Shown one piece after another: positions 5,557 through 53,525 of a stretch of 54,893 nucleotides of DNA (position 1 is the stretch's first letter; the number at the start of each line of letters is the position of its first letter). Origin of the DNA: a virus (lineage: Duplodnaviria; Heunggongvirae; Uroviricota; Caudoviricetes); the IMG/VR virus record IMGVR_UViG_2880378312_000013; one strand, given 5' to 3'. The notes below the pieces were generated by a model. It worked only from the letters and a program-made list of their open reading frames with translations, made no database searches and was not told the origin of the DNA. Made by a program: the position numbers and the translations under genes.

Positions 5557-6110
5557 AGCGTCACCTCCCCGGCAGGCAGCCGTGCAGAAAGGGAGAGTAC
5601 ATAATCTCGGACTAGCAAACGGCGCGCGGAACGCTCATCGCAGGAGACAGTGCGAAGCATACAGATGCGGGGGTGAGTGTCAGCACGGCGGATTGCGGCA
5701 AACACAAAGACATATTGCGGGTGTGACGGGGTGAGGATTGTAGCCATGATGGCAGCCTCCAATAAGTAGCGGTTATTGCTACCACCGGAAACGCCAATTT
5801 CACTGGTGGCAGCCCGAACGGGGTTGGCGTAACCGGCCTTATTGGAAACCGGCCAGCCCGAAGGCTGCCCCGCCCGGACTACCATTATCTCGATAGAACC
5901 ATGGTGTAAGCATAAACACCACAGCCCTGAAAATGGTTGTGCCTGAGCTACGACGTAAAAAAAGACGCAAGGGGCGTCAATTGTCGCCAATAAGTTATAC
6001 GGAACGCCAATTCCGGCTGCCGATTTTGCGACAGCGGAAAAACTATACCTGGAAATGACGACAGTAAGCAAGCCAGAATAAAGGTATTTAATGTATGCAG
6101 GTATCATCAT
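5553..6110 (-). CDS. hypothetical protein; real gene probably only the 3' third
   Basis: 185-aa ORF whose N-terminal part is low-complexity; a likely internal start at [11 protein letters not shown] would give about 64 aa. Confidence 0.3.
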
Positions 6111-9288: not shown

Positions 9289-9855
9289 TTAAACAGGATA
9301 AAAACCAGAGCTTCCATTCTTATTTAAGTTATGGATTTTATTTGCATCATTAATTTTTATTTGGAACGTCGGACCTTTATTCTCAAGAATTACAATCTGG
9401 AAATTATAGTCCCTTTTGATTAATGCGTGATAAAATGAATCACTGAGACTGACGCTATTAACATCCGATAGAGAACCCCCTCTATCTTTATCAAAGTGCG
9501 TCACTAATGGACTATCAAGCACAACAAATCCAATGAATGGATTCCCTTTTCTTGATAAAAATTCCGCAAAGCAAATGGTAAATATAGCATGCATTACTGC
9601 ACGGGTACCTTTACCAAACATTCCTCGGCGTTTCCCATTGATATTAAAGTCATATGTATCTTCGTCAAATCGCACTTTGTTATCTTTAGAATTTTCAAAA
9701 TTTATATCATTCAAAAAGTCTTGCATCGCTATTTCTATATCATACAAATCAGCTACTGTTAAGGAGTCAAAGTCCTCGGCGGAGTATTTAAGTTCGTCAA
9801 CATCATCTTCTTTATCTTGTAATGAAGATAGAATGCTATGTTTTGTGTGATCCAT
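9289..9855 (-). CDS. C-terminal head segment of an SMC-like ABC ATPase (Walker B-like region)
   Basis: 188 aa; hydrophobic strand followed by Asp (FIGFVVLDSPL) resembling Walker B but without the canonical Glu; start overlaps the upstream stop as TAATG. Confidence 0.55.
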   Translation of the reverse strand: MDHTKHSILSSLQDKEDDVDELKYSAEDFDSLTVADLYDIEIAMQDFLNDINFENSKDNKVRFDEDTYDFNINGKRRGMFGKGTRAVMHAIFTICFAEFLSRKGNPFIGFVVLDSPLVTHFDKDRGGSLSDVNSVSLSDSFYHALIKRDYNFQIVILENKGPTFQIKINDANKIHNLNKNGSSGFYPV

Positions 9856-10445
9856 TAAAAGATTGTCTTTATATTCATAAAGTGATTCAAGAGATGAATG
9901 TATTGTTTTATATTTTTATCTTCTAACGTCTTAAAATCACTTTTTTCTGATTGATAAATTTCATTAACATCATTTTTTCTTAACATAATTAATTCATGTT
10001 CGCGAACATTAGATCCGATTGATTCAATTAATCCTTTCAGCTGGCTTTTGATTTTCAATTTTTCTGCATTACACGACAAAAAACAATCATCATATGATAT
10101 TTCATTTTCTTTTTTTTGCGGTGTATTACAGAACTCACAATAAATATCTGCAAAATTATTTAAATAGAAATTCGCCTGTGATACAACATCTATTCTTTGT
10201 AGATCTATAAAGTATTGGTCTTTAAGAAGACTAAATCTTTCAATGAGTAATGATAAGTATTTTTCCCTGTCACTGATTGAATATAATTCATCACTTAACT
10301 CTTTTAATAATTGCTTCTTATCATCAAGTGCATCAACAATACCTTTCAATATATCTTTCGATGATTCAATATCTTGCTCTACTTTCTCAAGTTCTCTTGA
10401 AACAATGACTTGATCATATTCAGGATAAATTAATTGCGCTTTCAA
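9855..10445 (-). CDS. coiled-coil middle segment of the SMC-like ABC ATPase
   Basis: 196 aa, highly charged heptad-like sequence, TTG start; in the same frame as the upstream ORF and separated from it by a single TAA. Confidence 0.55.
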   Translation of the reverse strand: MKAQLIYPEYDQVIVSRELEKVEQDIESSKDILKGIVDALDDKKQLLKELSDELYSISDREKYLSLLIERFSLLKDQYFIDLQRIDVVSQANFYLNNFADIYCEFCNTPQKKENEISYDDCFLSCNAEKLKIKSQLKGLIESIGSNVREHELIMLRKNDVNEIYQSEKSDFKTLEDKNIKQYIHLLNHFMNIKTIF

Positions 10446-10475
10446 TTCCTCATAAATATTTGCAATTTGATTTTT

Positions 10476-11135
10476 TTAAAAATATCTTGCTTTTTTATTT
10501 GGTTTTTCTGCTAAGGAGTTAGTATCATCTCTCTGAGTTAAAAGGAATTTAAATTCAGACTTTCTTTTTGTCTCCTCGCTAGGAATATCAGAAAGAATTA
10601 ACGACTTCTCAGTTAACACTCTTAATTCATCAATACAAAAAAATTCAAAAACATTATTAAGATTAAATTTATGAAGAGTATTACTTAAGTTTGTTCTTAC
10701 TTTAGCCTCTTTGAAATTCAACCTACCATAAAAGTATGATGAAAAACTCTTTTTAGACGAAGCACTTTTGGAAAAAACCATCAACAGATTAGCTTCACTA
10801 ACATTTTCAATGCTCGAATCATATAATCTGTAATGGGCGCTATCCTGAAGAGACCTCTCAATTGTCATTACCCTACCTTGAAAATTAAATTCCAGATAGG
10901 CTAAATCATAACCTTGAGCATGATCGATATCTTTATTTTTTAGTTTTTCACTCCCTAATAAATATCGAATCAAATAATATATGTATGTTTTTCCAGAGTC
11001 AGAACCACCATATAAAATAGTCAATTTAGAACCAAATTCAATTATAGCATCTAATTTATTGAATCCGGTTACCTTTATTTTTCTGAACGTAAAAAAATTG
11101 TCATTCATAATTAAATTCCATATCATATTTGCCAA
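10476..11135 (-). CDS. N-terminal head segment of the SMC-like ABC ATPase (Walker A)
   Basis: FRKIKVTGFNKLDAIIEFGSKLTILYGGSDSGKTYI matches the N-terminal strand plus P-loop of SMC/Rad50/RecF-like ATPases; likely true start at MNDNFF. Confidence 0.65.
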   Translation of the reverse strand: MANMIWNLIMNDNFFTFRKIKVTGFNKLDAIIEFGSKLTILYGGSDSGKTYIYYLIRYLLGSEKLKNKDIDHAQGYDLAYLEFNFQGRVMTIERSLQDSAHYRLYDSSIENVSEANLLMVFSKSASSKKSFSSYFYGRLNFKEAKVRTNLSNTLHKFNLNNVFEFFCIDELRVLTEKSLILSDIPSEETKRKSEFKFLLTQRDDTNSLAEKPNKKARYF

Positions 11136-11574
11136 TTTTATTTTTTATAATTGATTGCAACTGCTCATCAGGAATATCACTATATAACTTAACCACCAAA
11201 TTTATATTATGCTCCATCTGCGCAACATATTCATTATGTAGAGAATTTGTAAATGCATATGTTTTTTCAGAAGCTTTATATACAAAACCACGATGTGTAT
11301 AAATTTTTGAGGCTAGTTCATAGCCTTGCAACAAAGCCAATGATTCTAAAACAATCTCTCGTTTTAGGGCTAACTGAGCATCTCTACGGGGTATTGGAGG
11401 ATGAAGACTAATCTCTTCAGGTAAAAAATCCTTAAGATTTACTAAAATAAAATCAAAACAAATAAGCCGTTCAAGGCTTAATGAAGAAGGATAAATAGCG
11501 ACGAGCACTTTCGCCATTCGACATGCCACTTCTAAACTTGAATTATAAATTCTAACCATTATCTCACCGTCCAA
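11101..11574 (-). CDS. small helical protein, candidate middle component of a three-gene defence cassette
   Basis: 157 aa, TTG start, overlaps both neighbours; position matches LmuC/ABC-3C middle components. Confidence 0.45.
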   Translation of the reverse strand: MDGEIMVRIYNSSLEVACRMAKVLVAIYPSSLSLERLICFDFILVNLKDFLPEEISLHPPIPRRDAQLALKREIVLESLALLQGYELASKIYTHRGFVYKASEKTYAFTNSLHNEYVAQMEHNINLVVKLYSDIPDEQLQSIIKNKIGKYDMEFNYE

Positions 11575-12176
11575 ATTACTTCACCATCATTAACCAAATG
11601 ATGGCATATTCCTTTTTTATCATTTGCTTCACATATTTTTGATAGTACTGAATGTGCAATTGGTGTCAGAACAGCCTGCTTCAAGACTGCATTACACCTA
11701 ATAAATGCATAATTATGGTCTTCATAAAAGACGGGTTCAATTGAAGATGAAATGTAACATTTCAATGCTTTGAATACATCATCTTTAAATACTTCGCGGA
11801 CAAAAACCTCAAGCGAAGATGCAAAATAAAAATCATTTCTACTATTATTAAAGTGTCGTCTGTATGGATCATCAAGCTCTAAGAAAGAACTATAAGTTTT
11901 ATTTCCATGCTCTGAATAGGCTTGAAGCAGTGCATTAACATATACAGACTCTTTTTTTGAATTGTATGTTGGAATTTCATTTGGAGGGATTCTCACGACA
12001 TACAGCTCGTTAAAGTACTTAAAATAAAGGTGTGTATTTGCAATATCATTTAAAATCAATGATAAGGGTAGAGAGTAAAAAATACTAAAATCAAAATCCT
12101 CAATATATTTTTTTATTTCATCATCTAATGGAATATCAATCTTTTTAGTTATTTTTTTGAAATTGCTGAATCCCAT
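11559..12176 (-). CDS. C-terminal part of the candidate effector protein (frameshifted relative to the upstream ORF)
   Basis: 205 aa; overlaps the upstream ORF by 28 nt in another frame across an A7 tract. Confidence 0.5.
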   Translation of the reverse strand: MGFSNFKKITKKIDIPLDDEIKKYIEDFDFSIFYSLPLSLILNDIANTHLYFKYFNELYVVRIPPNEIPTYNSKKESVYVNALLQAYSEHGNKTYSSFLELDDPYRRHFNNSRNDFYFASSLEVFVREVFKDDVFKALKCYISSSIEPVFYEDHNYAFIRCNAVLKQAVLTPIAHSVLSKICEANDKKGICHHLVNDGEVIWTVR

Positions 12177-12565
12177 GAATCAAGGACTGCTTTTTTAAGC
12201 TCGTTTTTATTTTTCAATAAATTAGAAAATGTAGTAGATAAATCATAGGGTGCCACAAAAAAGTACTTCTGAGGGATGGGATAATCACCATTCAGAGTAA
12301 AATAGATAAGTTTTCCAAACTCAACTACAACATCAGAGAACCCTAAACTTTTTTTGTACAGTTTGCATTGATAATTATCCCAAGAATAACCTTCTACGTT
12401 AGGATCCGATTTATATCCAACAACGTCTCTACCTTTATCTCCAGCTCCTCCCAAACGTTCGCTCCACGGGTAATCATCTGATTTACAGACAATAAGCCAA
12501 TCATGGACAAATACCTCCCATTGTTCATCATCCCATGTCAATATTTCCGAAAGTGGTTGAGACAC
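12149..12565 (-). CDS. N-terminal part of the candidate effector, PD-(D/E)xK / Mrr-like nuclease-fold motifs
   Basis: 138 aa, GTG start; GAGDKGRDVVGY followed by YQCK resembles the D...(E/Q)xK core of restriction-endonuclease-like folds; assignment is tentative. Confidence 0.45.
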   Translation of the reverse strand: MSQPLSEILTWDDEQWEVFVHDWLIVCKSDDYPWSERLGGAGDKGRDVVGYKSDPNVEGYSWDNYQCKLYKKSLGFSDVVVEFGKLIYFTLNGDYPIPQKYFFVAPYDLSTTFSNLLKNKNELKKAVLDSWDSAISKK

Positions 12566-12568
12566 AAA

Positions 12569-13801
12569 TTAACTCCTTTTTAGTCTTTCAAATATCAAAT
12601 TACTGTACCAGTCCATCATAGACTTCCTTCCACTAAAATATTGAGCATGGTTATAAGTCCCCCTAATAGAATTTTTATCTACATGAGCCAACTGGATTTC
12701 AATCCAAGCACTCTCAAAACCTTGCTCATGCAGGATTGTAGAAAGGGTATGACGAAAACCATGTCCAGTGACTTTTCCTCCATACCCAATACGCTTAATG
12801 GCTTGATTTATACTCGCTTCGCTCATTGGCCTATTCGGATCGTTCCGCCCTGGAAAAACATAACGATAGTTCCCTGTCATGATCTTGAGTTCATTGAGTA
12901 AATCTACCGCTTGAGATGATAAGGGCACAAGATGTGGCCTACGCATTTTCATCCTTTCAGCAGGAATTTCCCAAATAGCGTTATCCAGATCAAATTCTTG
13001 CCATAATGCCGCGCGTAATTCGATGGTTCTCACACCCGTAATCATCAGTAATTTCGTGGCTATCTGGACAAGCTTACTCCCGGAGTAACCCTCTAAGGCA
13101 CGTAGAAAATCAGGTATCTCATCAGCTTTTAGGAATGGGAAATGATTGGATTGGTGTACTTCGAGAGCGCTGGAGAGATCAGCCGCAGGATTGTACTCCG
13201 CCCTACCCGTTGCAATTGCGTAGCGAAACACTTCGGAGCAACGCTGCCGCACTTTGCGCATTTTCTCCAACGCACCACGTTTCTCAATTTTACGCAGAAC
13301 GTTCAGCAGCTCTAGCGGTTTAATCTCTCCCACAGGCCTTGTTCCGACATAAGGAAAAATGTCGTTCTTAAACGCTTCCATGATGTCTGATGCATATCCC
13401 GCCGACCATTTAGCAGATTTAAGTTGATGCCACTCTCTGGCTATCTTTTCGAAGGCGTTCTCTGACTCTGTTTGCATAGCTAGCTTTTGCTCTTTTCGAA
13501 CCTCACTAGGGTTCTTTCCTTCTGCCACAAGTTTTCGAGCTTCATCACGACGGGAACGAGCATCGGCAAGGGTGATCGTTGGGTAAACACCAAGCGAGAT
13601 CATTTTGGGTTTGCCGGCATAGCGATAGCGGAACCGCCAACTCTTGCTTCCATTAGGTTCTATAAGTAATGACAACCCTAGCCCATCTCCAAATGTATAG
13701 GCTTTAGCTTCAGGCTTAGCGCGGCGAATCTGCATATCGTTTAAAGGCATGTGTATAGGAATCCAGACCGAACAGGAACATATACACAATCCTATACACA
13801 T
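12569..13801 (-). CDS. P4-type tyrosine integrase
   Basis: 410-aa ORF with C-terminal catalytic region (HGFRHT...Y); sits next to the partial tRNA-Thr repeat, co-oriented with it; probable start at MPLNDMQ. Confidence 0.9.
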   Translation of the reverse strand: MCIGLCICSCSVWIPIHMPLNDMQIRRAKPEAKAYTFGDGLGLSLLIEPNGSKSWRFRYRYAGKPKMISLGVYPTITLADARSRRDEARKLVAEGKNPSEVRKEQKLAMQTESENAFEKIAREWHQLKSAKWSAGYASDIMEAFKNDIFPYVGTRPVGEIKPLELLNVLRKIEKRGALEKMRKVRQRCSEVFRYAIATGRAEYNPAADLSSALEVHQSNHFPFLKADEIPDFLRALEGYSGSKLVQIATKLLMITGVRTIELRAALWQEFDLDNAIWEIPAERMKMRRPHLVPLSSQAVDLLNELKIMTGNYRYVFPGRNDPNRPMSEASINQAIKRIGYGGKVTGHGFRHTLSTILHEQGFESAWIEIQLAHVDKNSIRGTYNHAQYFSGRKSMMDWYSNLIFERLKRS

Positions 13802-13912
13802 TCAGTACCGGATTCTACTGGATGGTTACGGACTACTATGGACTTAAAAGAATAAAAAATGTTATAAATCAGAGATTTTATGGACTAATACGGACGTTTG
13901 AGGAAGTTGAGA

Positions 13913-13958
13913 TGGTGCCGATAATAGGAGTCGAACCTACGACCTTCGCATTACGAAT
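13913..13958 (-). repeat. 46-bp direct repeat of the thrW 3' end (att site shared by both elements)
   Basis: tggtgccgataataggagtcgaacctacgaccttcgcattacgaat is identical to the 3' part of the intact tRNA-Thr at 53450-53495, then diverges. Confidence 0.8.
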
Positions 13959-14233
13959 TATAAGAATCCGCTTCTAATTCAAAGCATTACCCCATCAACA
14001 CTGCGCTCACACGTCCCACCACATCAAAACATGTAAAGCCTTGCAAGCCATTGCGAGGCCTTATGTGTCTCAGTTTTGTCCCACCTTGTATTACGACTTG
14101 CATAGCCAATGAAGATAAACGTGACGACAAACGGCGCAGCAGTCTTCTTTTCTTTCACGACTTCTCCAGCATGCATACCTTTCTGCCATGACTGAAGTGA
14201 ATGCCTGTTATGAGCGAGGATTGGCCCAGATGA

Positions 14234-14671
14234 ATCGCCCTGGACTGTTGCGATCGTGAAGCCATAGACTGGGCCGCAAGCACGGGAGGTTACGATAAAG
14301 CGACAGTGCAGGATGTCATGTTAGGAGCGATAGAAAAACGCTTTGGCGATAAAGTACCGGAACAGTCCATCCAGTGGCTGACAGATAACGGTTCAGCGTA
14401 TAGAGCGCATGAAACACGGCAGTTCGCCAGAGAGTTGAATCTGGAGCCCTGCACAACGGCAATCAGCAGTCCTCAGAGTAATGGAATTGCAGAAAGGTTC
14501 GTGAAAACGATGAAGGAAGACTATATCGCGTTCATGCCGAAACCGAATGTAAGAACGGCATTGCATAATCTTGCAGTGGCGATCGAACATTACAATGAAA
14601 ACCATCCGCACAGTGCGTTGGGTTATCGCTCTCCGCGAGAATATCGACGTCAGCGGGTAACGTTAACTTAA
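14234..14671 (+). pseudogene. IS2-like (IS3 family) transposase orfB remnant
   Basis: Translation [23 protein letters not shown]...[14 protein letters not shown]...[14 protein letters not shown] matches the integrase-core C-terminus of IS2 InsD as I recall it; in-frame stop upstream and no orfA. Confidence 0.6.
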
Positions 14672-14712
14672 GATACACCCCCTGTCTGGAAATAAGGGGG
14701 CAAGAACAATGA

Positions 14713-15465
14713 TCAGATTCCCTGGTGAGTAAGAATTTTACTTTCTGAACTCCTCTGAGAGTATTGACTTGGAGAAACACCAAAATAACGTCTAAATACA
14801 TAAGTAAAGTATGAGACACTGGCATAACCACAGACCTTAGCTACTTTACTAATAGGATAACAACGAGTGCTGAGTAAATATTCAGCCATTTGCATCCTCT
14901 CATCAAGTATGATCTTACTGAATGATACCCCCTCTTCTTTCAATTTCCTCTTTAGTAAACTTTCGCTGAGATATAATCTTGATGATATATCCTTAAGACG
15001 CCATGGTGCAGATAAATCCGTATGAATAATCGTTTTAACTTTAGCCCCTGTGCTTTTCAAACATCCAAACAGAAATACTCCAAATTGTTTTTCAGAAGAA
15101 AATGCAGAGAGACATGTAAAAGCAATAGACTCATCAAAAATTTCTATGTATTCAGCACAGTGATTAGCCCAACTAATTAATCCTTTAATTAAACTGAAGT
15201 CAGCAAAGTTTATTTTTAAATAAGATGGATATTCCCTACAATCAGAAATATCCCTTAAGTTATTAGCTTTCAAATAGCGACTAATAAACTCAGCGCCAAA
15301 ATCCGCCACTATCACTCTTTCAGGATATGTCAGGAAAAAATCTCTAGAGCTAGAGTCGACAAGTACAGATGAACCTCTCTCCAGAAACACACTCTCTTTT
15401 CCGAAATAAACATCAAAGGACTCCAAAATCAATATAACTGAACATGTAGTTGCCATATCATCCAC
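14713..15465 (-). CDS. AraC-family transcriptional regulator
   Basis: 250 aa, C-terminal AraC-type HTH (ISKVAKVCGYASVSYFTYVFRRYFGVSPSQY); gene is markedly AT-rich. Confidence 0.8.
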   Translation of the reverse strand: MDDMATTCSVILILESFDVYFGKESVFLERGSSVLVDSSSRDFFLTYPERVIVADFGAEFISRYLKANNLRDISDCREYPSYLKINFADFSLIKGLISWANHCAEYIEIFDESIAFTCLSAFSSEKQFGVFLFGCLKSTGAKVKTIIHTDLSAPWRLKDISSRLYLSESLLKRKLKEEGVSFSKIILDERMQMAEYLLSTRCYPISKVAKVCGYASVSYFTYVFRRYFGVSPSQYSQRSSESKILTHQGI

Positions 15466-16038
15466 CCAATTTAACTGAAACCAGGATGAAGTATATGTAT
15501 ATAAAGTTCACTTTGCCAAACTTCAGTATAAAAAACCACTAAAAATAGGGTGTGATAAAAAATACCGTAACAATAAAGCAAAGGATTATAAATTCCGTTA
15601 CAGTTACAAATGATACTCAAGAAACAATTCCTTAGGAAAAACTTATTTACAGCCAATAAGTAAGACACTTATATGATATCAAGTTTTCATAAAACATAAC
15701 TAGGCTAAATAGCTGCGCCTAATACCGCTACACTTTTGCCAGCCCATGTTTGCCTCCGGGTATTGACCCCTTCTCTACGCAACTTCAGTTCCCACCACCA
15801 ACTTTGCGGCAGCTTTGTAGGATCAATGTCTAAAAGAATAATGGTGACCGATAAGAAAACGACTGAATAACTGCAGATTTTCGCTCGAAACCTTCCTGTC
15901 AGATCCATAGCGAATCAAGTGCTGAATGTCACAGTATCGAACAGAAAACAGTGACGATCTAACCCTTCAAGAATATTCTACGATTGTTCTGTTTAGGAAA
16001 AGCAAGGCGGGAAGTCGGGAGATAAGTCATTGATAAAG

Positions 16039-16104
16039 TGGCGGAGAGAGGGGGATTTGCCCCCCCGGTAGAGTTGCCCCTACTCCGGTTTTCGAGACCG
16101 GTCC
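16039..16104 (-). other. partial tRNA-Ser(CGA)-like 3' fragment (relic att site)
   Basis: Reverse complement reads ggaccggtctcgaaaaccggagtaggggcaactctaccggggg..caaatccccctctctccgcca, the anticodon-to-3'-end part of a serU-type tRNA; 5' third absent. Confidence 0.6.
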
Positions 16105-16184
16105 AATCATCAAACGAAACATAAAATTAATTCACATTATGAGGAAAAGTATCTTTTTTGTACTATGTAAATTCAAAGACTTAG

Positions 16185-17054
<870 letters not shown>

Positions 17055-23594: not shown

Positions 23595-24961
23595 TGCACT
23601 GGCACCTTCAGAGGGATCACCGGCACAAAGCCGGGATGCGTAATGGCATTACGCCGGATAATGTCCGCGTCACGCGCCGCGTTATCAAACCAGGTCGCCG
23701 CCAGCACCAGCGCGGGTAAAACCTCATCCGGCGTGCGCTGAATGATCCGTGCAGACTGTTCAAGGCGCGTGTTGATATCCGCATTCAGATCTGCTTTCAC
23801 CCGGCGCAGCGCCAGAAACAGCGCATCACTGGTTGTACGGGACAACTCCTTATCAATTGCCGTATTCAGTGTGTCGCGAATGTCGGTCAGTTCTTCCCAC
23901 GTTGGCAGGTCAACCGTGTTTTTCACCGCCGGTGCATTGTTCAGTGCCGGATGCGTGACAGAAGGCCAGCCGGTGCTCTGCGCGGGTGTTGTTGACTGCC
24001 CTACTGTGGCATTCTGCATCACCGCGGAAGTTGTGGGCGCAGGCAATCGTGTGACGGCATACGCCGCTTCGCTGATTGCAGTCGTACGAAGGGTGCTGGC
24101 AACCACGTTACGCTGCTGCGTCGCCGTGGCGGTAGTTTTACTGTCCGTTTTCCAGACGCCGCGCGGTTGCAGATCGCTGCCGAGGCTGACACCGGAAAGC
24201 GTTTTGATCATGGTGACCAGGTCGCTGGCGTTACCATAAAGGCGTTTCCCGGTACGCCACATTTTCTGCACCTGCTCAACGAAATTTTTGCCTGACGATG
24301 GTGGCGGCAGAAGTACCGAGATATCCCCCTGCAACAGCCTGGCGGCATCCGATACGGCAGAATCCACCACTTTCATCGCATCAGAAACATACCCAAGCAT
24401 TGTGCTGGCATTACCGACGACGTCGTTCTGCACAAAATCTGCCACGCCATCGATACTGAAACCACTGAAGCTGTCACTGATGCAGTCATCCAGTGCAGAA
24501 CAGGATGACATCAGCGTCTGCGCCGTCGCCGCACCTGAAGTGGGGTAAGAGAGTTCTCCCGCTTCGACAAACTTCAGGTCAAAGCGGACAATACGCCCTT
24601 CACTCTTCGATGTGCTGACCCGAACTTCCCCGTCAACACAGACTTTCAGCTCACCGTAAGTCGGATGGACAAGCGTGCCGGGACCGGGTTTATTCAGCGC
24701 GTCAATCAGGCGATCGCGCTGGTCAAAGCAGTCATCTCCCACCACATAAGCTGTGATGGACGGGCGGAAAGTGATTTTCCCCAGGTCTTCGGTATAGGGT
24801 TTGTCGCGGTTCGGGTATTCGTGCGTTTCCACACGACGACCGGTTCCCGCACTTTCTTCTTCAACCTTAAACGGCACACCGCGAAATGACGCGTCCTGAA
24901 GTCTGTCTTTCCACGTCATATAAACTCCGTACATAAAAAATCCCACCGGAGTGGGACTCAT
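23591..24961 (-). CDS. Mu N-like DNA circularisation protein
   Basis: 456-aa ORF after the tape-measure gene; N-terminal region resembles Mu N. Confidence 0.7.
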   Translation of the reverse strand: MSPTPVGFFMYGVYMTWKDRLQDASFRGVPFKVEEESAGTGRRVETHEYPNRDKPYTEDLGKITFRPSITAYVVGDDCFDQRDRLIDALNKPGPGTLVHPTYGELKVCVDGEVRVSTSKSEGRIVRFDLKFVEAGELSYPTSGAATAQTLMSSCSALDDCISDSFSGFSIDGVADFVQNDVVGNASTMLGYVSDAMKVVDSAVSDAARLLQGDISVLLPPPSSGKNFVEQVQKMWRTGKRLYGNASDLVTMIKTLSGVSLGSDLQPRGVWKTDSKTTATATQQRNVVASTLRTTAISEAAYAVTRLPAPTTSAVMQNATVGQSTTPAQSTGWPSVTHPALNNAPAVKNTVDLPTWEELTDIRDTLNTAIDKELSRTTSDALFLALRRVKADLNADINTRLEQSARIIQRTPDEVLPALVLAATWFDNAARDADIIRRNAITHPGFVPVIPLKVPVQ

Positions 24962-44948: not shown

Positions 44949-45409
44949 TCTTCACCCGATACAGCGCGCTTGCTGCTTTTCCGTAAGCACCGCTCACAAC
45001 GCGCCAGAAAATTGTTTCGTTCTGGCTGGGAGTGGCTTTCACGGAATGCCGCCATCCACACCGTTGCAGCACGACGGTATAAGCCCCTGGACTCCAGTTC
45101 TTCAGCCTGGCGGGTCAGGCACAAAATCACCCGGGGATCGTTAGTGCCGACATAGAAATTGCGCACAGGTCTGGTTTCACGAACTGGTTGTGGTTCCGGC
45201 TCCTGCGCTCTCTCAGTCAGGCGCGGGAAATGTCTGCGTGTATCCCCTTCACAACGGTGAGCCACACGCCCACTCTGACGTAACTTGCTTGCAGACTGCA
45301 GAACGCGCTGCCGTGAGTAACCTGCAAAAGCATCCGCAATGTCTCCGGAAGTACAGCCCGGATGGGCTTCAATGAATTTCTGAACGTCATTCAAAAGACT
45401 CATGCTCAC
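44915..45409 (-). CDS. hypothetical protein (replication region)
   Basis: 164-aa ORF downstream of the initiator gene. Confidence 0.4.
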   Translation of the reverse strand: MSMSLLNDVQKFIEAHPGCTSGDIADAFAGYSRQRVLQSASKLRQSGRVAHRCEGDTRRHFPRLTERAQEPEPQPVRETRPVRNFYVGTNDPRVILCLTRQAEELESRGLYRRAATVWMAAFRESHSQPERNNFLARCERCLRKSSKRAVSGEEWYLSGNYVGA

Positions 45410-46347
45410 CCCCTGAATCCTGCCGGGATCTGGCTGTAGTCCACGTTGTCGTAACTGGCTTTGAAGTACGGGTCCTCGCGTTTTTCGGTGTACGTGCTGA
45501 CGGACGGCGATAAGCGCAGGGAAAGCTCATCCCATTTTTCCCGCAGCTTCGACGGGCTGAGCACGTTACGGCACCAGAACGGATCGCGACTGACGCGGCT
45601 GTACATCTCGCAGATTTGTTTATGAGTACGACCATCCTGCACACACATCAGGCGAATTTCGTTTGCCCAGGCTGTCCAGTTCGGTTCTTTGGGACGAACC
45701 ACCTCGCCGTCACATTCGGCGGCATGCTCGTACAGGGCGATGATTTTTTTCCAGAGCCACTGTGCACAGGTCAAATCATCCTGCGTCCCCCACTGGCGCT
45801 TTTTAGGGCTGAATACAACCGCATCAGGATGGCGAGTTAAAAAATCCTGTTCATCCGTCTGCGTGTCCGGTTGCGAAGCGTCCGGACGAGAAGGTTTTTT
45901 ATCTGACGGATCATGTTTTGATTTTACTGACGGATCCCCGCCAGATTCTGACGGGTGAAAACCCGCTTTTTTGCCAGATTTCGACGCATCAAATTTTGAC
46001 GGGTCAGATTTTGATGCGTCAGATTTTGACGGGTCAGAATCTGACAGTTGAGAAAATGCCGCTGCCTGAAGCTTCGCAACGTTAAGCTGATAAACATTCG
46101 ACGCATTGCGGTTACCCTGGCGACGCGCCTTACGCGTTAACCAGCCTTCTGCTTCCAGCCGTGCGATAGCCGTTCTGACGGTGCTCATCCCCGCGCCAAT
46201 CTGGCGGGCAATGGTTTCAATTGATGGCCAGCACACACCTTCGTCATTACTGAAATCAGCCAGGCGGGCCATAATTGCCACGCTGGATAACTTCATGCCT
46301 GACGCAGCGCAACCATCCCATACATAGCCGGTTAATTTAGTGCTCAT
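45406..46347 (-). CDS. replication initiator, lambda O-like (contains iterons)
   Basis: N-terminal HTH-like region, internal amino-acid repeats (DPSKSDASKSDPSKFDASKS) encoded by DNA iterons, acidic linker. Confidence 0.65.
   Translation of the reverse strand: MSTKLTGYVWDGCAASGMKLSSVAIMARLADFSNDEGVCWPSIETIARQIGAGMSTVRTAIARLEAEGWLTRKARRQGNRNASNVYQLNVAKLQAAAFSQLSDSDPSKSDASKSDPSKFDASKSGKKAGFHPSESGGDPSVKSKHDPSDKKPSRPDASQPDTQTDEQDFLTRHPDAVVFSPKKRQWGTQDDLTCAQWLWKKIIALYEHAAECDGEVVRPKEPNWTAWANEIRLMCVQDGRTHKQICEMYSRVSRDPFWCRNVLSPSKLREKWDELSLRLSPSVSTYTEKREDPYFKASYDNVDYSQIPAGFRG
45900..46050. repeat. iteron cluster (candidate replication origin) inside the O-like gene
   Basis: About six copies of GAT(T/C)TGACGG(G/A)TC-like repeats in direct and inverted orientation. 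Confidence 0.55.
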
Positions 46348-48860: not shown

Positions 48861-48995
48861 TTTTTTCAGGTAACTCGTCGGCATCGCAGAAACAACAACG
48901 CTCGATCATGTTGAAAGCCGATTCGTAGAACTGTTTTTGCTGAGTGTCGCTGATGAACCGCCCCGGTTTTCCTGGAGAGTGTTTTATCTGTGAAC

Positions 48996-49883
48996 TCAGG
49001 CTGCCAGATCATCGTTTCTGATGGAAGCATAATAAGCTTTTTCTGCTTCTGCCGGAGGGATATGACCCAGCCTTCCCAGCAATCGTCGATTGTTATACCA
49101 GTCCACCCACGTGAGTGTGGCCAGTTCCACTTCTGCACGGTTTTTCCAGCTCTTACGGTGTATTACCTCCGCTTTGTAAAGACCATTGATGCTCTCCGCC
49201 ATCGCGTTGTCATACGAGTCACCTGTACTCCCTGTTGATGCCAGCAGTTTTGCTTCTTTTAGTCGCTCCGTATAGGCCAGTGATACATACTGAGAACCTT
49301 TATCACTGTGATGGACTGTGCCGGACGGCCGACGGGCCCACAACGCCTGCTCCAGTGCATCCAGCACGAATGTCGTTTCCATAGACGATGAGACTCGCCA
49401 CCCCACGATACATCCGGAAAACACATCAATGATGAACGCCACATAGACGAAGCCCTGCCATGTGCTGACGTAAGTAAAATCAGCCACCCACAGCTGGTCA
49501 GGACGTTCTGCCACGAACTGACGGTTTACGCGGTCGCCTGCGGAAACGGCTTTCCGGCTGACGGTAGTACGGACCTTTTTACCCCGGAGAACACCGGCAA
49601 GTCCCATAACCGCCATGAGGCGCGCCACTGTACATCTGGCCACCCTGATACCTTCGCGTAACAACTGGCGCCAGACTTTACGCACACCGTACACCTGATG
49701 ATTTTCATCGTATACGCGCTGTATCTCTCTCTTCAGCCAGTCATCGCGCTGCGCACGGGCACTGCGTTTATCCGGATGATGTCGCTGTTGCTGACAGTGG
49801 TAATACGTTGACGGGGCAATATGCAGTTCACTGCATACCGGTCCGACCCCGTACTGCTCACGCAGCTTATCCAGCAGCGGCAT
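48996..49883 (-). CDS. IS3-family transposase orfB (DDE integrase core)
   Basis: 295 aa with rve-type catalytic core. Confidence 0.9.
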   Translation of the reverse strand: MPLLDKLREQYGVGPVCSELHIAPSTYYHCQQQRHHPDKRSARAQRDDWLKREIQRVYDENHQVYGVRKVWRQLLREGIRVARCTVARLMAVMGLAGVLRGKKVRTTVSRKAVSAGDRVNRQFVAERPDQLWVADFTYVSTWQGFVYVAFIIDVFSGCIVGWRVSSSMETTFVLDALEQALWARRPSGTVHHSDKGSQYVSLAYTERLKEAKLLASTGSTGDSYDNAMAESINGLYKAEVIHRKSWKNRAEVELATLTWVDWYNNRRLLGRLGHIPPAEAEKAYYASIRNDDLAA

Positions 49884-50209
49884 TATTTTTTCCAGAGGCG
49901 GTCGAACTCCGCCTTCGCAAAATAAGCGGAAGCCTGGCGAAGGATATCGTTACTGCGGCGCAGTTCACGATTTTCACGTTCCAGCTCTTTCAGACGCTGA
50001 CGTTCAGCGGTGGTGAGTCCACCATCACCGCCCCCGGTATCCCGCTCATGCTGACGAACCCACACACGCAGAGTCTCTGGTGTACAGCCAATCTTTGGGG
50101 CAATGGAACAAATTGCCGCCCATTGTGAGTCATATTCGCCCTGACTTTCCAGAACCATACGGACTGCCCGTTGACGGACCTCGGGGGAAAAACGTGTATT
50201 TTTAGTCAT
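49883..50209 (-). CDS. IS3-family transposase orfA (HTH)
   Basis: 108 aa, [19 protein letters not shown]..., leucine-zipper-like C-terminus. Confidence 0.9.
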
Positions 50210-50823
50210 CCTGTTTACCTCTTTCTCAGGGAGTTTAGTCTCCAGGATTCCCGGGGCGGTTCACTGAGACAGGAAAAGAGCGACGTTACGATGATTTTAT
50301 TAATTGCATTATCAAGTTCTTTTTCATCAAAAGTCATTTGATTTTCCTTTTATGTATACGGGCTTAAAAGGATACCACCGAGCCTGAAGTGGTGAAAAGA
50401 CAGGCACATAACAGCTAAGTATTTTCAACCAGAGAGAATCCTTAGCGTTGTGGTGAATGCGGCTCAGCGCACGCGGGTTAAGGTTGAGGCTGACAGTCGA
50501 CCTTCTGTGGATACCCACCCGCCTGGTGTGCAACCTTCGCCAGGCACCGGGAGGCACCCGGCACCACAACTTTATGCTGTGTGTAGTCTTAGCGGTACCA
50601 GCTTGTACCCTTGCTTCCGGCTGGTACCGTCCTTTTTACAAAACAGAGAAGAGCATCACCGGACGACGGGCTCATAACCCAATCCATCCGGGCGGCTGCC
50701 ACCGCAGGTGTTCTTCTCTGTTTTGTGGAGAAACTAACCGCCCCTACGGGGGCATTTATGGAAATGTAATTGACTCAATAATCGCCGGACGGTGAGGGCT
50801 TCCTTTTACCCGAATTCAGCGCG

Positions 50824-52045: not shown

Positions 52046-52395
52046 TGGAGCCATACAGCCTCACACTCGATGAGGCCTGTCATTTTCTCAAGATATCCAG
52101 ACCGACTGCCATTAACTGGATACGCACAGGGCGTCTTCAGGCAACACGCAAAGATCCCACTAAGAATAAATCTCCTTACCTCACAACACGACAAGCCTGC
52201 ATTGCGGCTCTTCAGTCTCCGCTGCATACTGTCCAGGTGAGCGCGGGTGATGGCATAACAGAGGAAAGAAAATGTCACTCTTCCGCAGAGGTGAAATATG
52301 GTACGCCAGTTTCACATTGCCGAACGGTAAAAGATTTAAACAGTCTCTTGGAACAAAGGACAAAAGGCAGGCGACAGAACTCCATGACAAGCTAA
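52045..52395 (+). CDS. xis: excisionase (P22 Xis-like)
   Basis: [36 protein letters not shown]... HTH; overlaps int start. Confidence 0.7.
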
Positions 52396-53435
52396 AGGCT
52401 GAAGCATGGCGGGTCAGCAAACTTGGTGAAATACCTGATATAACGTTCGAGGAAGCGTGTGTCAGGTGGCTTGAAGAGAAAGCACATAAAAAATCGCTGG
52501 ACGATGACAAAAGCCGGATCGGATTCTGGCTTCAACATTTCGCAGGAATGCAACTAAGAGACATTACTGAATCAAAAATTTATTCAGCAATGCAGAAAAT
52601 GACGAACCGGCGTCATGAGGAAAACTGGAAACTCAGGGCAGAAGCATGCAGAAAAAAAGGGAAACCTGTTCCAGAATACACGCCAAAACCAGCGTCCGTT
52701 GCAACGAAGGCTACGCATCTTTCATTTATAAAGGCCCTACTAAGAGCCGCAGAGCGTGAATGGAAAATGCTGGATAAGGCACCAATTATTAAAGTGCCTC
52801 AACCAAAGAATAAACGGATCCGCTGGCTGGAGCCCCATGAAGCACAAAGGCTGATTGATGAATGTCCGGAGCCATTAAAGTCTGTTGTTGAATTTGCACT
52901 GGCAACAGGCTTAAGACGCTCGAACATCATCAACCTTGAATGGCAACAAATAGATATGCAGCGCCGGGTGGCATGGATAAACCCGGAAGAGAGTAAATCA
53001 AACCGCGCAATTGGCGTTGCGCTGAATGATACTGCATGTCGCGTATTGAAAAAACAAATCGGGAATCATCACCGTTGGGTATTTGTGTACAAGGAAAGCT
53101 GTACCAAACCAGACGGAACGAAAGCGCCAACAGTAAGGAAGATGCGGTATGACGCAAACACAGCCTGGAAAGCGGCGCTGAGACGGGCTGGTATTGATGA
53201 TTTCAGATTTCACGACTTGAGACACACCTGGGCAAGTTGGCTGGTTCAAGCCGGAGTCCCGTTGTCAGTGTTACAGGAAATGGGAGGCTGGGAGTCTATC
53301 GAAATGGTTCGTCGATATGCTCACCTTGCACCTAATCACCTTACCGAACACGCACGGCAAATAGACTCGATCCTGAACCCATCGGTCCCAAATTTGTCCC
53401 AGTCAAAAAATAAGGAAGGTACTAATGATGTGTAA
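52272..53435 (+). CDS. int: tyrosine integrase (P22-type)
   Basis: 387 aa ending in the catalytic box ([39 protein letters not shown]); stops 15 nt from the tRNA-Thr 3' end. Confidence 0.95.
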
Positions 53436-53449
53436 CTTATTGATTTTAA

Positions 53450-53525
53450 TGGTGCCGATAATAGGAGTCGAACCTACGACCTTCGCATTACGAATGCGCT
53501 GCTCTACCAACTGAGCTATATCGGC
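53450..53525 (-). tRNA. thrW: tRNA-Thr (anticodon CGU)
   Basis: Reverse complement gives GCCGATATAGCTCAGTTGGTAGAGCAGCGCATTCGTAATGCGAAGGTCGTAGGTTCGACTCCTATTATCGGCACCA with intact cloverleaf and CCA. Confidence 0.9.

Follow-up and report, generated by a model that had tools for sequence, protein, structure and literature searches.

Lambda bio and lambda gal owe their origin to aberrant excision, which carries an att junction together with adjacent host DNA, and in the serotype-converting Shigella phages SfIV, SfII, SfI and SfV the cargo consists of gtr O-antigen modification genes. Fragments of tRNA genes of the attR type are a well-known by-product of integration (bioRxiv 10.1101/2022.07.05.498093). 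At serU, which encodes tRNA-Ser(CGA) in E. coli, they are found at native attRs, such as the pseudo-tRNA-Ser by yodB in SerU-LTIIb (KU052038) and the attR of Sp14/CP-933U in O157. Sp14 lies at serU, between yodB and tRNA-Ser(cga), and thrW is occupied by Sp1 and the P4-like Sp2, or by a 'compound prophage' (PMC8190617, PMC2669165). PatE (z0321, O-island 8) is a prophage-encoded regulator of acid resistance and of the LEE (PMC10877973).

The locus described here shares with the native serU attRs the same serU, the same sublocation and the same host flank, and like them it has the form of a tyrosine-integrase junction in which identity starts at the anticodon stem and extends to the 3′ end. Unlike them, it does not lie at an element border, has neither an intact serU partner nor a cognate integrase, and is nested in a thrW prophage; its host flank, too, differs from theirs, being only 278 bp long and ending in an IS remnant. 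The fragment thus belongs to a known type, the attR scar, whose native counterpart in prophage SerU-LTIIb is annotated as pseudo-tRNA-Ser, but its placement is unusual and previously undescribed. What is unusual is the displacement: the piece derives from a tRNA other than the prophage's own site and travels in viable phages within a cargo cassette. No description of a displaced serU scar was found in the searchable literature.

The serU relic, its host flank and the native junction

The window, by which we mean the whole stretch of 54,893 nucleotides that was analysed (IMG/VR record IMGVR_UViG_2880378312_000013), is chromosome of E. coli O157:H7 and is 100% identical to many O157 genomes. A perfect direct repeat of the thrW 3′ half, 47 nt long (13912-13958 and 53449-53495), brackets a 39.5-kb myovirus prophage with a P27-type terminase, an HK97-type capsid, sheath and tube, a baseplate, and invertible tail fibres with pinE. 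Its integrase is 100% identical to SfIV Int, 98.5-99.5% identical to the integrases of SfII, SfI and SfV, and 90% identical to those of P22-like phages, and the thrW repeat fits the known target of the SfIV/SfV/P22-type integrase family. With SfIV, SfII, SfI and SfV the resident prophage has in common, besides an integrase at 98.5-100%, integration at thrW with the 47-nt repeat and the position of its cargo between the tail-fibre end and attP. It differs from the Sf phages in that this cargo is an AraC cassette, a serU scar and a GIY-YIG gene, not gtr, and in that its late region is collinear with a serU-integrating E. coli prophage. A P4-like satellite lies left of the repeat at 13912-13958, which its integrase (12569-13801) abuts. 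The serU relic sits inside the thrW prophage, at the attR-proximal end, where the order is thrW fragment, P arm, IS3 fragment, AraC gene, 249 bp, IS630 remnant, spacer, serU relic, 16105-16280, GIY-YIG gene, pinE and tail fibres. The features to which we refer are as follows:

13912-13958, minus strand: 47-nt repeat of the thrW 3′ part (with 53449-53495), at once the true attR of the resident prophage and, for the P4-like satellite, the attL side
13959-14234, no strand: thrW-type P arm of the resident prophage, 93.6% identical to the thrW-adjacent arm in F138 (L007 3308-3619) and found in many other genomes
14235-14710, plus strand: IS3-family (ISEc48-like) transposase fragment, left edge of the cassette, with the boundary at 14235 common to ev099 and mEp332
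14713-15456, minus strand: AraC-family regulator, cargo of the cassette (Pfam HTH_AraC and HTH_18; RefSeq annotation)
15706-15760, no strand: what is left of the end of an IS630-family element (matches at 93% to regions annotated as IS630-family transposase)
15761-16038, minus strand: host chromosome, the yodB-serU intergenic spacer (B′ flank), 278 bp; at the native locus of K-12 and of 5401/5426 genomes the identity is 97%
16039-16104, minus strand: relic of the serU 3′ 66 nt (64/66 to K-12 serU; no ARAGORN or Rfam call)
16083-16100, no strand: core overlap, the 18-bp anticodon stem-loop of serU, covered both by the cassette block on the left and by the GIY-YIG-arm block on the right
16105-16280, no strand: serU-type phage P arm, the region upstream of the GIY-YIG gene; an arm that in MB15 and RMDEC332, at the native locus, runs on into the serU fragment, the full spacer and yodB
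16281-17054, plus strand: LEM-3-like GIY-YIG domain gene, the last phage gene before the old attR (Pfam PF22945)
52272-53435, plus strand: resident integrase of 387 aa, of the SfIV/SfII/SfI/SfV/P22 type, a thrW-specific family (by sequence identity)
53450-53525, minus strand: intact thrW, tRNA-Thr(CGT), the attL of the resident prophage (ARAGORN, Rfam and the 47-nt repeat)

We took the serU reference sequence from the E. coli K-12 record (L002 3279-3368, tRNA-Ser(CGA)). The relic, on the minus strand at 16039-16104, matches the 3′ 66 nt of K-12 serU (nt 25-90) at 64 of 66 positions and reads GGACCGGTCTCGAAAACCGGAGTAGGGGCAACTCTACCGGGGGGGCAAATCCCCCTCTCTCCGCCA in the tRNA sense, with identity that runs from G25, immediately 5′ to the anticodon stem, to the terminal CCA and takes in the CGA anticodon loop, the long variable arm, the T-arm and the 3′ strand of the acceptor. 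Both mismatches fall side by side in the T-loop, where GGGGGTTCAAATCCCCC is replaced by GGGGGGGCAAATCCCCC (TT to GG in the tRNA sense), so that T54 and Psi55 are GG. Past 16104 the 5′ half of the tRNA is absent, the window having AATCA where serU has GTTCA. When the window was searched with up to three mismatches a single site was returned, versus an expectation of 0 from 100 shuffles, which excludes a chance match to serU. Neither ARAGORN nor Rfam at its gathering threshold called a tRNA at the relic, and a permissive mode gave only a sub-threshold tRNA-Sec match (21.5 bits, E 0.12), a weak match that is expected because the relic is half a gene. Judged by full cloverleaf, acceptor stem, conserved T-loop and finder call, the relic is no functional tRNA gene. 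The first-pass annotation had described about 66 nt of a serU-type tRNA (CGA), from anticodon to acceptor, with a small T-arm change and no 5′ part, in the cargo region of a prophage. The alignments to host serU and to serU-integrating phages that it proposed came out positive, and its description agrees with ours throughout, the relic lying inside the 47-nt repeats, between the tail-fibre/pin end and the thrW attR.

Of 5426 complete E. coli genomes, 5401, K-12 among them, have a serU locus to which the 344-bp block at 15761-16104 is ~97% identical. The serU locus of K-12 has no prophage, yet the 278-bp spacer is there, directly downstream of serU and towards yodB. As the tRNA piece is joined to host DNA on its 3′ side, it represents the B′ side of an attR (P-O-B′) and not an attP. 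For the phage side we built a synthetic chimera, in which the yodB end of K-12, the full spacer and the serU fragment were joined to window positions 16105-16500. It matched MB15 and RMDEC332 end to end in one piece, with 100% coverage and 98.9% identity, and the native serU attR of both strains has exactly the window's junction, ...GAGACCGGTCC|AATCATC.... In MB15 the native order is zinT, yodB, spacer, serU fragment, GIY-YIG gene, pinE and tail fibres, and on to the terminase. Its attL end begins with an intact, regenerated serU, after which the sequence diverges at once from the host into phage-specific sequence, followed by three cargo genes and a 328-aa integrase. This divergence indicates that the attP of the phage has the 66-nt tRNA block and not the spacer; the 66 nt of the relic are the attP/attB identity block of a serU-integrating myovirus lineage. 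Since the spacer is absent from the attP of this serU-integrating sibling, the spacer in the window is host-derived.

Several traits of an attR are thus found at the relic: identity to the tRNA 3′ part from the anticodon stem to the 3′ end, continuation on the 3′ side into the DNA that normally follows serU (278 bp at 97%), and, on the 5′ side, a phage arm that is seen at the native attR of an integrated phage (MB15, RMDEC332). The other end of the element lacks an intact serU in the same orientation with a cognate integrase and has thrW and the SfIV-type integrase instead; no intact serU gene lies elsewhere in the window, and no serU-type integrase is encoded in it. With this partner and this integrase missing, the junction is displaced and is not a current att site. 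The attP of a serU phage would have the core with a P′ arm and an adjacent integrase and no host flank, whereas the flank here is the host spacer. As judged from these sequence comparisons, the relic is a displaced attR junction of phage arm, core and host side, and not an attP core. Of the initial view that the fragment is an att-site footprint, the att origin stood, but the attP/attB core gave way to an attR-type junction (P-O-B′), since the 3′ side is host spacer.

The suggestion that the module was acquired from, or once belonged to, an element integrating at tRNA-Ser is supported by the identical junction at native serU in MB15 and RMDEC332, and it can be extended beyond the cargo module to the whole backbone of the prophage. 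The MB15 prophage is a myovirus of the same type, integrated at serU, and the window prophage follows it collinearly over positions 15761 to ~51731, with 90-98% identity. The integrases of the two (387 aa in the window, 328 aa in MB15) are essentially unrelated, with 31% identity over 58 aa, and the difference between the prophages is their integrase/att end, thrW with the SfIV-type integrase versus serU with the 328-aa integrase. A collinear backbone with a different integrase end points to a phage of the serU lineage with a thrW-type module, in which the old attR was kept as an internal scar. We had also considered phi458 as a clean, relic-free comparator and dropped it, as its att-proximal region is rearranged by IS1.

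Tandem arrays of elements at one tRNA gene, which leave behind repeated tRNA fragments, are a known arrangement and the window has one at thrW, but the serU piece comes from another tRNA and is therefore not explained by tandem integration at thrW. The possibility that the relic is the attL of the P4-like satellite, minus the 5′ half, was rejected, as the satellite integrase abuts the thrW fragment at 13912-13958 and not serU.

At its outer end the captured spacer is cut at a TA by the IS630 remnant (GGGTA|TTGAC in the window versus AATTA|TTGAA in K-12). Preference for TA targets is a trait of the IS630 family, which the position of the cut fits. The junction of IS630 remnant and spacer was found beside an intact serU in 0 of 5426 complete genomes, and the absence of this donor configuration from complete genomes points to insertion and truncation in a phage or in an unsampled host.

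The AraC cassette, its phage arms and its decay

The relic forms the end of a cassette of 1866 bp (14235-16100) that comprises the IS3 fragment, the AraC gene, the IS630 end, the spacer and the serU fragment. The AraC gene is probably that of PatE (Z0321, O-island 8). The cassette is ~99% identical in ev099 and mEp332, two virion-derived lambdoid phages whose b region holds it, flanked by the tail fibres on one side and by their own attP-int on the other, and it is also present in an argW-associated lambdoid prophage of strain EC19; in PhiR70_1 we found the block of spacer and serU fragment, and for this phage that block alone is shown. Host DNA with an att junction in a packaged genome, a trait of specialised transduction, is therefore seen in this block in virion-derived ev099, mEp332 and PhiR70_1. 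As in lambda bio and lambda gal, host DNA is contiguous with P-O-B′ in a phage genome, the original integrase side is gone or has given way to another, and the product is packaged in viable phages (ev099, mEp332). The differences from lambda bio/gal are that only a non-coding spacer is carried, that the outer breakpoint is an IS630-family end, and that the att module was later replaced by one of another specificity.

The homology of the cassette to ev099 and mEp332 stops at 16098-16100, and the homology of the GIY-YIG arm to p11A, F138 and SL124 begins at 16083. Past the tRNA core, ev099 and mEp332 continue into a lambdoid serU-type arm (...GAGACCG|ATGATACAG...), which is related to the native attR arms of SerU-LTIIb and Sp14. 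Scanning IMG/VR with the diagnostic junction of IS630 remnant and spacer, we obtained 34 loci, 33 of which could be evaluated: the cassette was joined to an arm of the MB15 type in 15, of the GF130 type in nine and of the lambdoid type in eight, and in the one remaining copy the T-loop was interrupted by an insertion. Every copy of the cassette, whatever its arm, has one and the same spacer haplotype, distinct from the native haplotypes of K-12, O157, MB15 and GF130, and in some strains this haplotype is the native allele (99.6% identity). The most economical reading of these sequences would be that a host with this type of allele was the source of a single capture, after which arms were exchanged at least twice within 15892-16100. 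No SNP right of 15891 distinguishes the cassette spacer from the native one, so that the crossover of the arm exchange is placed no more finely than this interval, and an exchange anywhere in 15892-16100 fits capture in a myovirus and in a lambdoid lineage alike. The same cassette carries different arm alleles in two O157 lineages, and the relic is kept in at least 409 complete genomes as well as in viable phages. As longer-flank intermediates we considered GF130, PM4 and Q5 and rejected them, since GF130 turned out to be a native serU locus whose yodB region differs.

Diverse prophages carry the GIY-YIG gene, which occurs in 849 of 5426 E. coli genomes. This widespread moron always adjoins the tail-fibre end of lambdoid or myovirus prophages and has other cargo beside it, for instance a lipase or, in ST131, an R-M system at ssrA. 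In SL124 (L005 4978-5003) and in p11A and F138 (L006, L007 4979-5003) the GIY-YIG arm carries only 16-19 nt of the serU anticodon arm and is fused at CT(N)CGG to a homolog of the lambda b region (lambda 24162-24340, the ea47-ea31 interval). With this fusion the same att core has a hybrid junction of a second kind, independent of the first. Taking the arm in F138, p11A and SL124 for an unrecombined attP (P-O-P′) was rejected, because the left arm is lambda b region, no integrase is near and only 16-19 nt are tRNA-derived. When viral contigs were scanned by exact pattern for a free attP with the GIY-YIG arm, only copies of the scar were returned.

Among the 33 evaluable IMG/VR copies of the cassette the T-loop is wild type in 20, CC in eight, changed from A to C in two, deleted for a C in two and interrupted by an insertion in one. 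FORC_082 has an additional T-loop variant, and one cassette copy has a change in the anticodon loop. All native attR copies, on the other hand, have a wild-type T-loop, and the contrast with the ectopic copies, some of them mutated, is consistent with native-site copies that stem recently from the host gene and with neutral decay of the ectopic ones. In the scanned region 15400-16400 no promoter-like or terminator-like sites flank the relic, the only promoter-like site there being at 15519-15490 on the minus strand, where it is placed for the AraC gene. A T-loop decayed in at least four ways, together with the lack of a promoter and of a tRNA call, marks the relic as non-functional, and to judge from its letters it has no detectable function at present.

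The T-loop variants also form a series. At 16059-16066 and in the IMG/VR loci L019-L054 the sequence goes from GAACCCCC to GACCCCCC to GCCCCCCC, with a C-run that grows stepwise, and single-C deletions and one insertion (L026 and L054) are found at the same spot, which suggests a local mutational hotspot within the relic.

Proposed history and alternative readings

We consider it very probable that the relic is a displaced, non-functional attR scar of an old serU integration, which was captured with host spacer and now lies inside the thrW prophage. The history that we propose builds on what the comparisons established, namely the segment identities, the junction at the native locus, the collinearity with the sibling, the swap of the integrase, the single origin of the cassette, its multiple arms and its decay. 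A temperate phage would have been placed into the anticodon-loop region of serU by tyrosine-integrase recombination, and this integration would have created a junction of phage P arm, core, serU 3′ part, host spacer and yodB, the counterpart of which is seen in MB15. The junction and 278 bp of adjoining spacer would then have been captured into a phage genome, possibly when a prophage excised aberrantly, as in lambda bio, or through illegitimate recombination associated with an IS. The IS630-family end would mark the outer breakpoint of the capture, and its position there suggests that an IS was involved. The captured piece would have become the end of the 1.87-kb cassette, with one origin and later exchange between phages through tRNA and spacer homology, by a homologous or an integrase-mediated route. 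Capture may have taken place in the myovirus lineage, or else in a lambdoid one with later recombination to the attP or attR of the myovirus, in which case the scar would have recombined through the 62-66-nt tRNA block or through the spacer. Finally, a P27/SfV-like myovirus of the serU lineage would have obtained an SfIV-type integrase/attP module and settled at thrW, leaving a serU piece that would border nothing, would not be expressed as a tRNA and would be decaying.

A doubtful alternative is that the relic still works as a recombination site, used by a serU-type integrase (of Sp14/CP-933U, which resides in the same O157 genome, or of an incoming MB15-like phage) or by homologous recombination with serU, with arm or cargo swaps, ectopic integration or a chromosome rearrangement between thrW and serU as the outcome. 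In its favor, three different phage arms meet a single cassette haplotype exactly at the tRNA core, the same cassette has different arm alleles in two O157 lineages, a second hybrid junction occurs at the same core in F138, SL124 and p11A, and Sp14, with an apparently intact integrase, is located at serU in O157 (PMC2669165, PMC8190617). Yet there is no direct evidence of ongoing recombination, the P arm of the relic is unlike that of Sp14, the resident phage has no serU-type integrase, and rare historical homologous crossovers in ~200 bp of invariant sequence explain all the exchanges. The one-haplotype, three-arm pattern suggests a related, tentative idea, in which the scar might serve as a portable recombination handle for the exchange of arms, cargo or att modules between unrelated phages, for instance lambdoid siphoviruses and P27/SfV-like myoviruses, or with chromosomal serU, as the same 66-340 bp are present in every E. 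coli chromosome and in every serU-integrating phage. If this unlikely idea were true, it would account for both the one haplotype on three arm types and the retargeting from serU to thrW, and rearrangements between thrW and serU driven by the Sp14 integrase or by homology would be possible in O157.

The remaining explanations seem to us far less probable. An unrecombined or secondary attP of a serU-integrating element, nested in the prophage with a phage-borne tRNA copy, could be imagined because serU-integrating phages do carry the 66-nt serU 3′ block in their attP (the MB15 attL regenerates the tRNA) and because tRNA piece and spacer are found in the sequenced virions ev099 and mEp332. We regard it as highly improbable, as host spacer lies 3′ of the tRNA piece in place of a P′ arm or an integrase gene, the block in ev099 and mEp332 is in the b region, far from their own int-attP, the window has no serU-type integrase, and the spacer is cut by an IS end. 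That the relic yields a functional tRNA-derived RNA (a decoy or substrate mimic for an anticodon nuclease, or a small regulatory RNA) or acts as a cis element of the AraC or GIY-YIG gene has just as slim a chance: the anticodon, variable and T arms could still fold, and viable phages as well as at least 409 complete genomes have kept the piece, but linkage to the cassette explains this retention, the 5′ half and the acceptor stem are missing, ARAGORN and Rfam are negative, no promoter-like site lies upstream on the minus strand and no terminator was found, and universally conserved T-loop bases are altered in four independent ways, an insertion among them, beside one change in the anticodon loop. 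Least credible of all is the idea that, in place of a phage-borne capture, the O157 lineage had its chromosome rearranged, for instance by inversion or translocation between the serU and thrW prophages. O157 is rich in recombining prophages and its thrW holds a 'compound prophage' (PMC8190617), but the same cassette with the same breakpoints is found in virion-derived lambdoid genomes and in unrelated strains at argW and elsewhere, an ordinary Sp14 attR is still at native serU in O157, and both thrW att repeats of the prophage are intact.

Under the preferred reading, that of a displaced attR scar, the retention of the old attR is direct evidence that a swap of the integrase/att module took a P27/SfV-like myovirus lineage from serU to thrW. 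The scar is also the mark of a single capture of host DNA that travels with an AraC regulator, and can serve as a lineage marker for the cassette in lambdoid and myovirus prophages; in EHEC, acid resistance and LEE genes are under the control of PatE, the probable identity of this regulator. Annotators should label the fragment an att relic and not a tRNA, a pseudo-tRNA gene or a prophage boundary, and programs that call boundaries by pairing tRNA fragments could mis-delimit the compound thrW island. The scar reveals no new mechanism, and its value lies in the history of the phages.

Other elements of the thrW array

The array at thrW consists, in tandem, of thrW (53449-53525), the myovirus, the 47-nt thrW fragment (13912-13958), the P4-like, Sp2-like satellite and, at 1026-1042, a third, degenerate thrW 3′ part (ATGGTG-CGATAATAGGA), which may be the far att site of the satellite. 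By the satellite integrase, at 9289-12565 on the minus strand, RefSeq annotates 'ABC-three component system' genes (middle component 2 and another) and an AAA ATPase, one of these genes being frameshifted; the set looks like anti-phage defence cargo in a variable hotspot. Rfam reported a C4 antisense RNA and the Hfq-binding RNA isrK on the minus strand of the satellite (5802-5889 and 5958-6035), presumably its immunity RNA region. Within the myovirus, the early region is interrupted by an IS3-family element (48953-50261) with an ALIL frameshift pseudoknot (49812-49928, minus strand), an insertion that the MB15 sibling lacks. Five tandem 15-bp iteron-like repeats of the CAGATTTTGACGGGT type (45975-46049) lie within the minus-strand ORF at 45406-46347 and are likely the prophage replication origin, located within the initiator gene.
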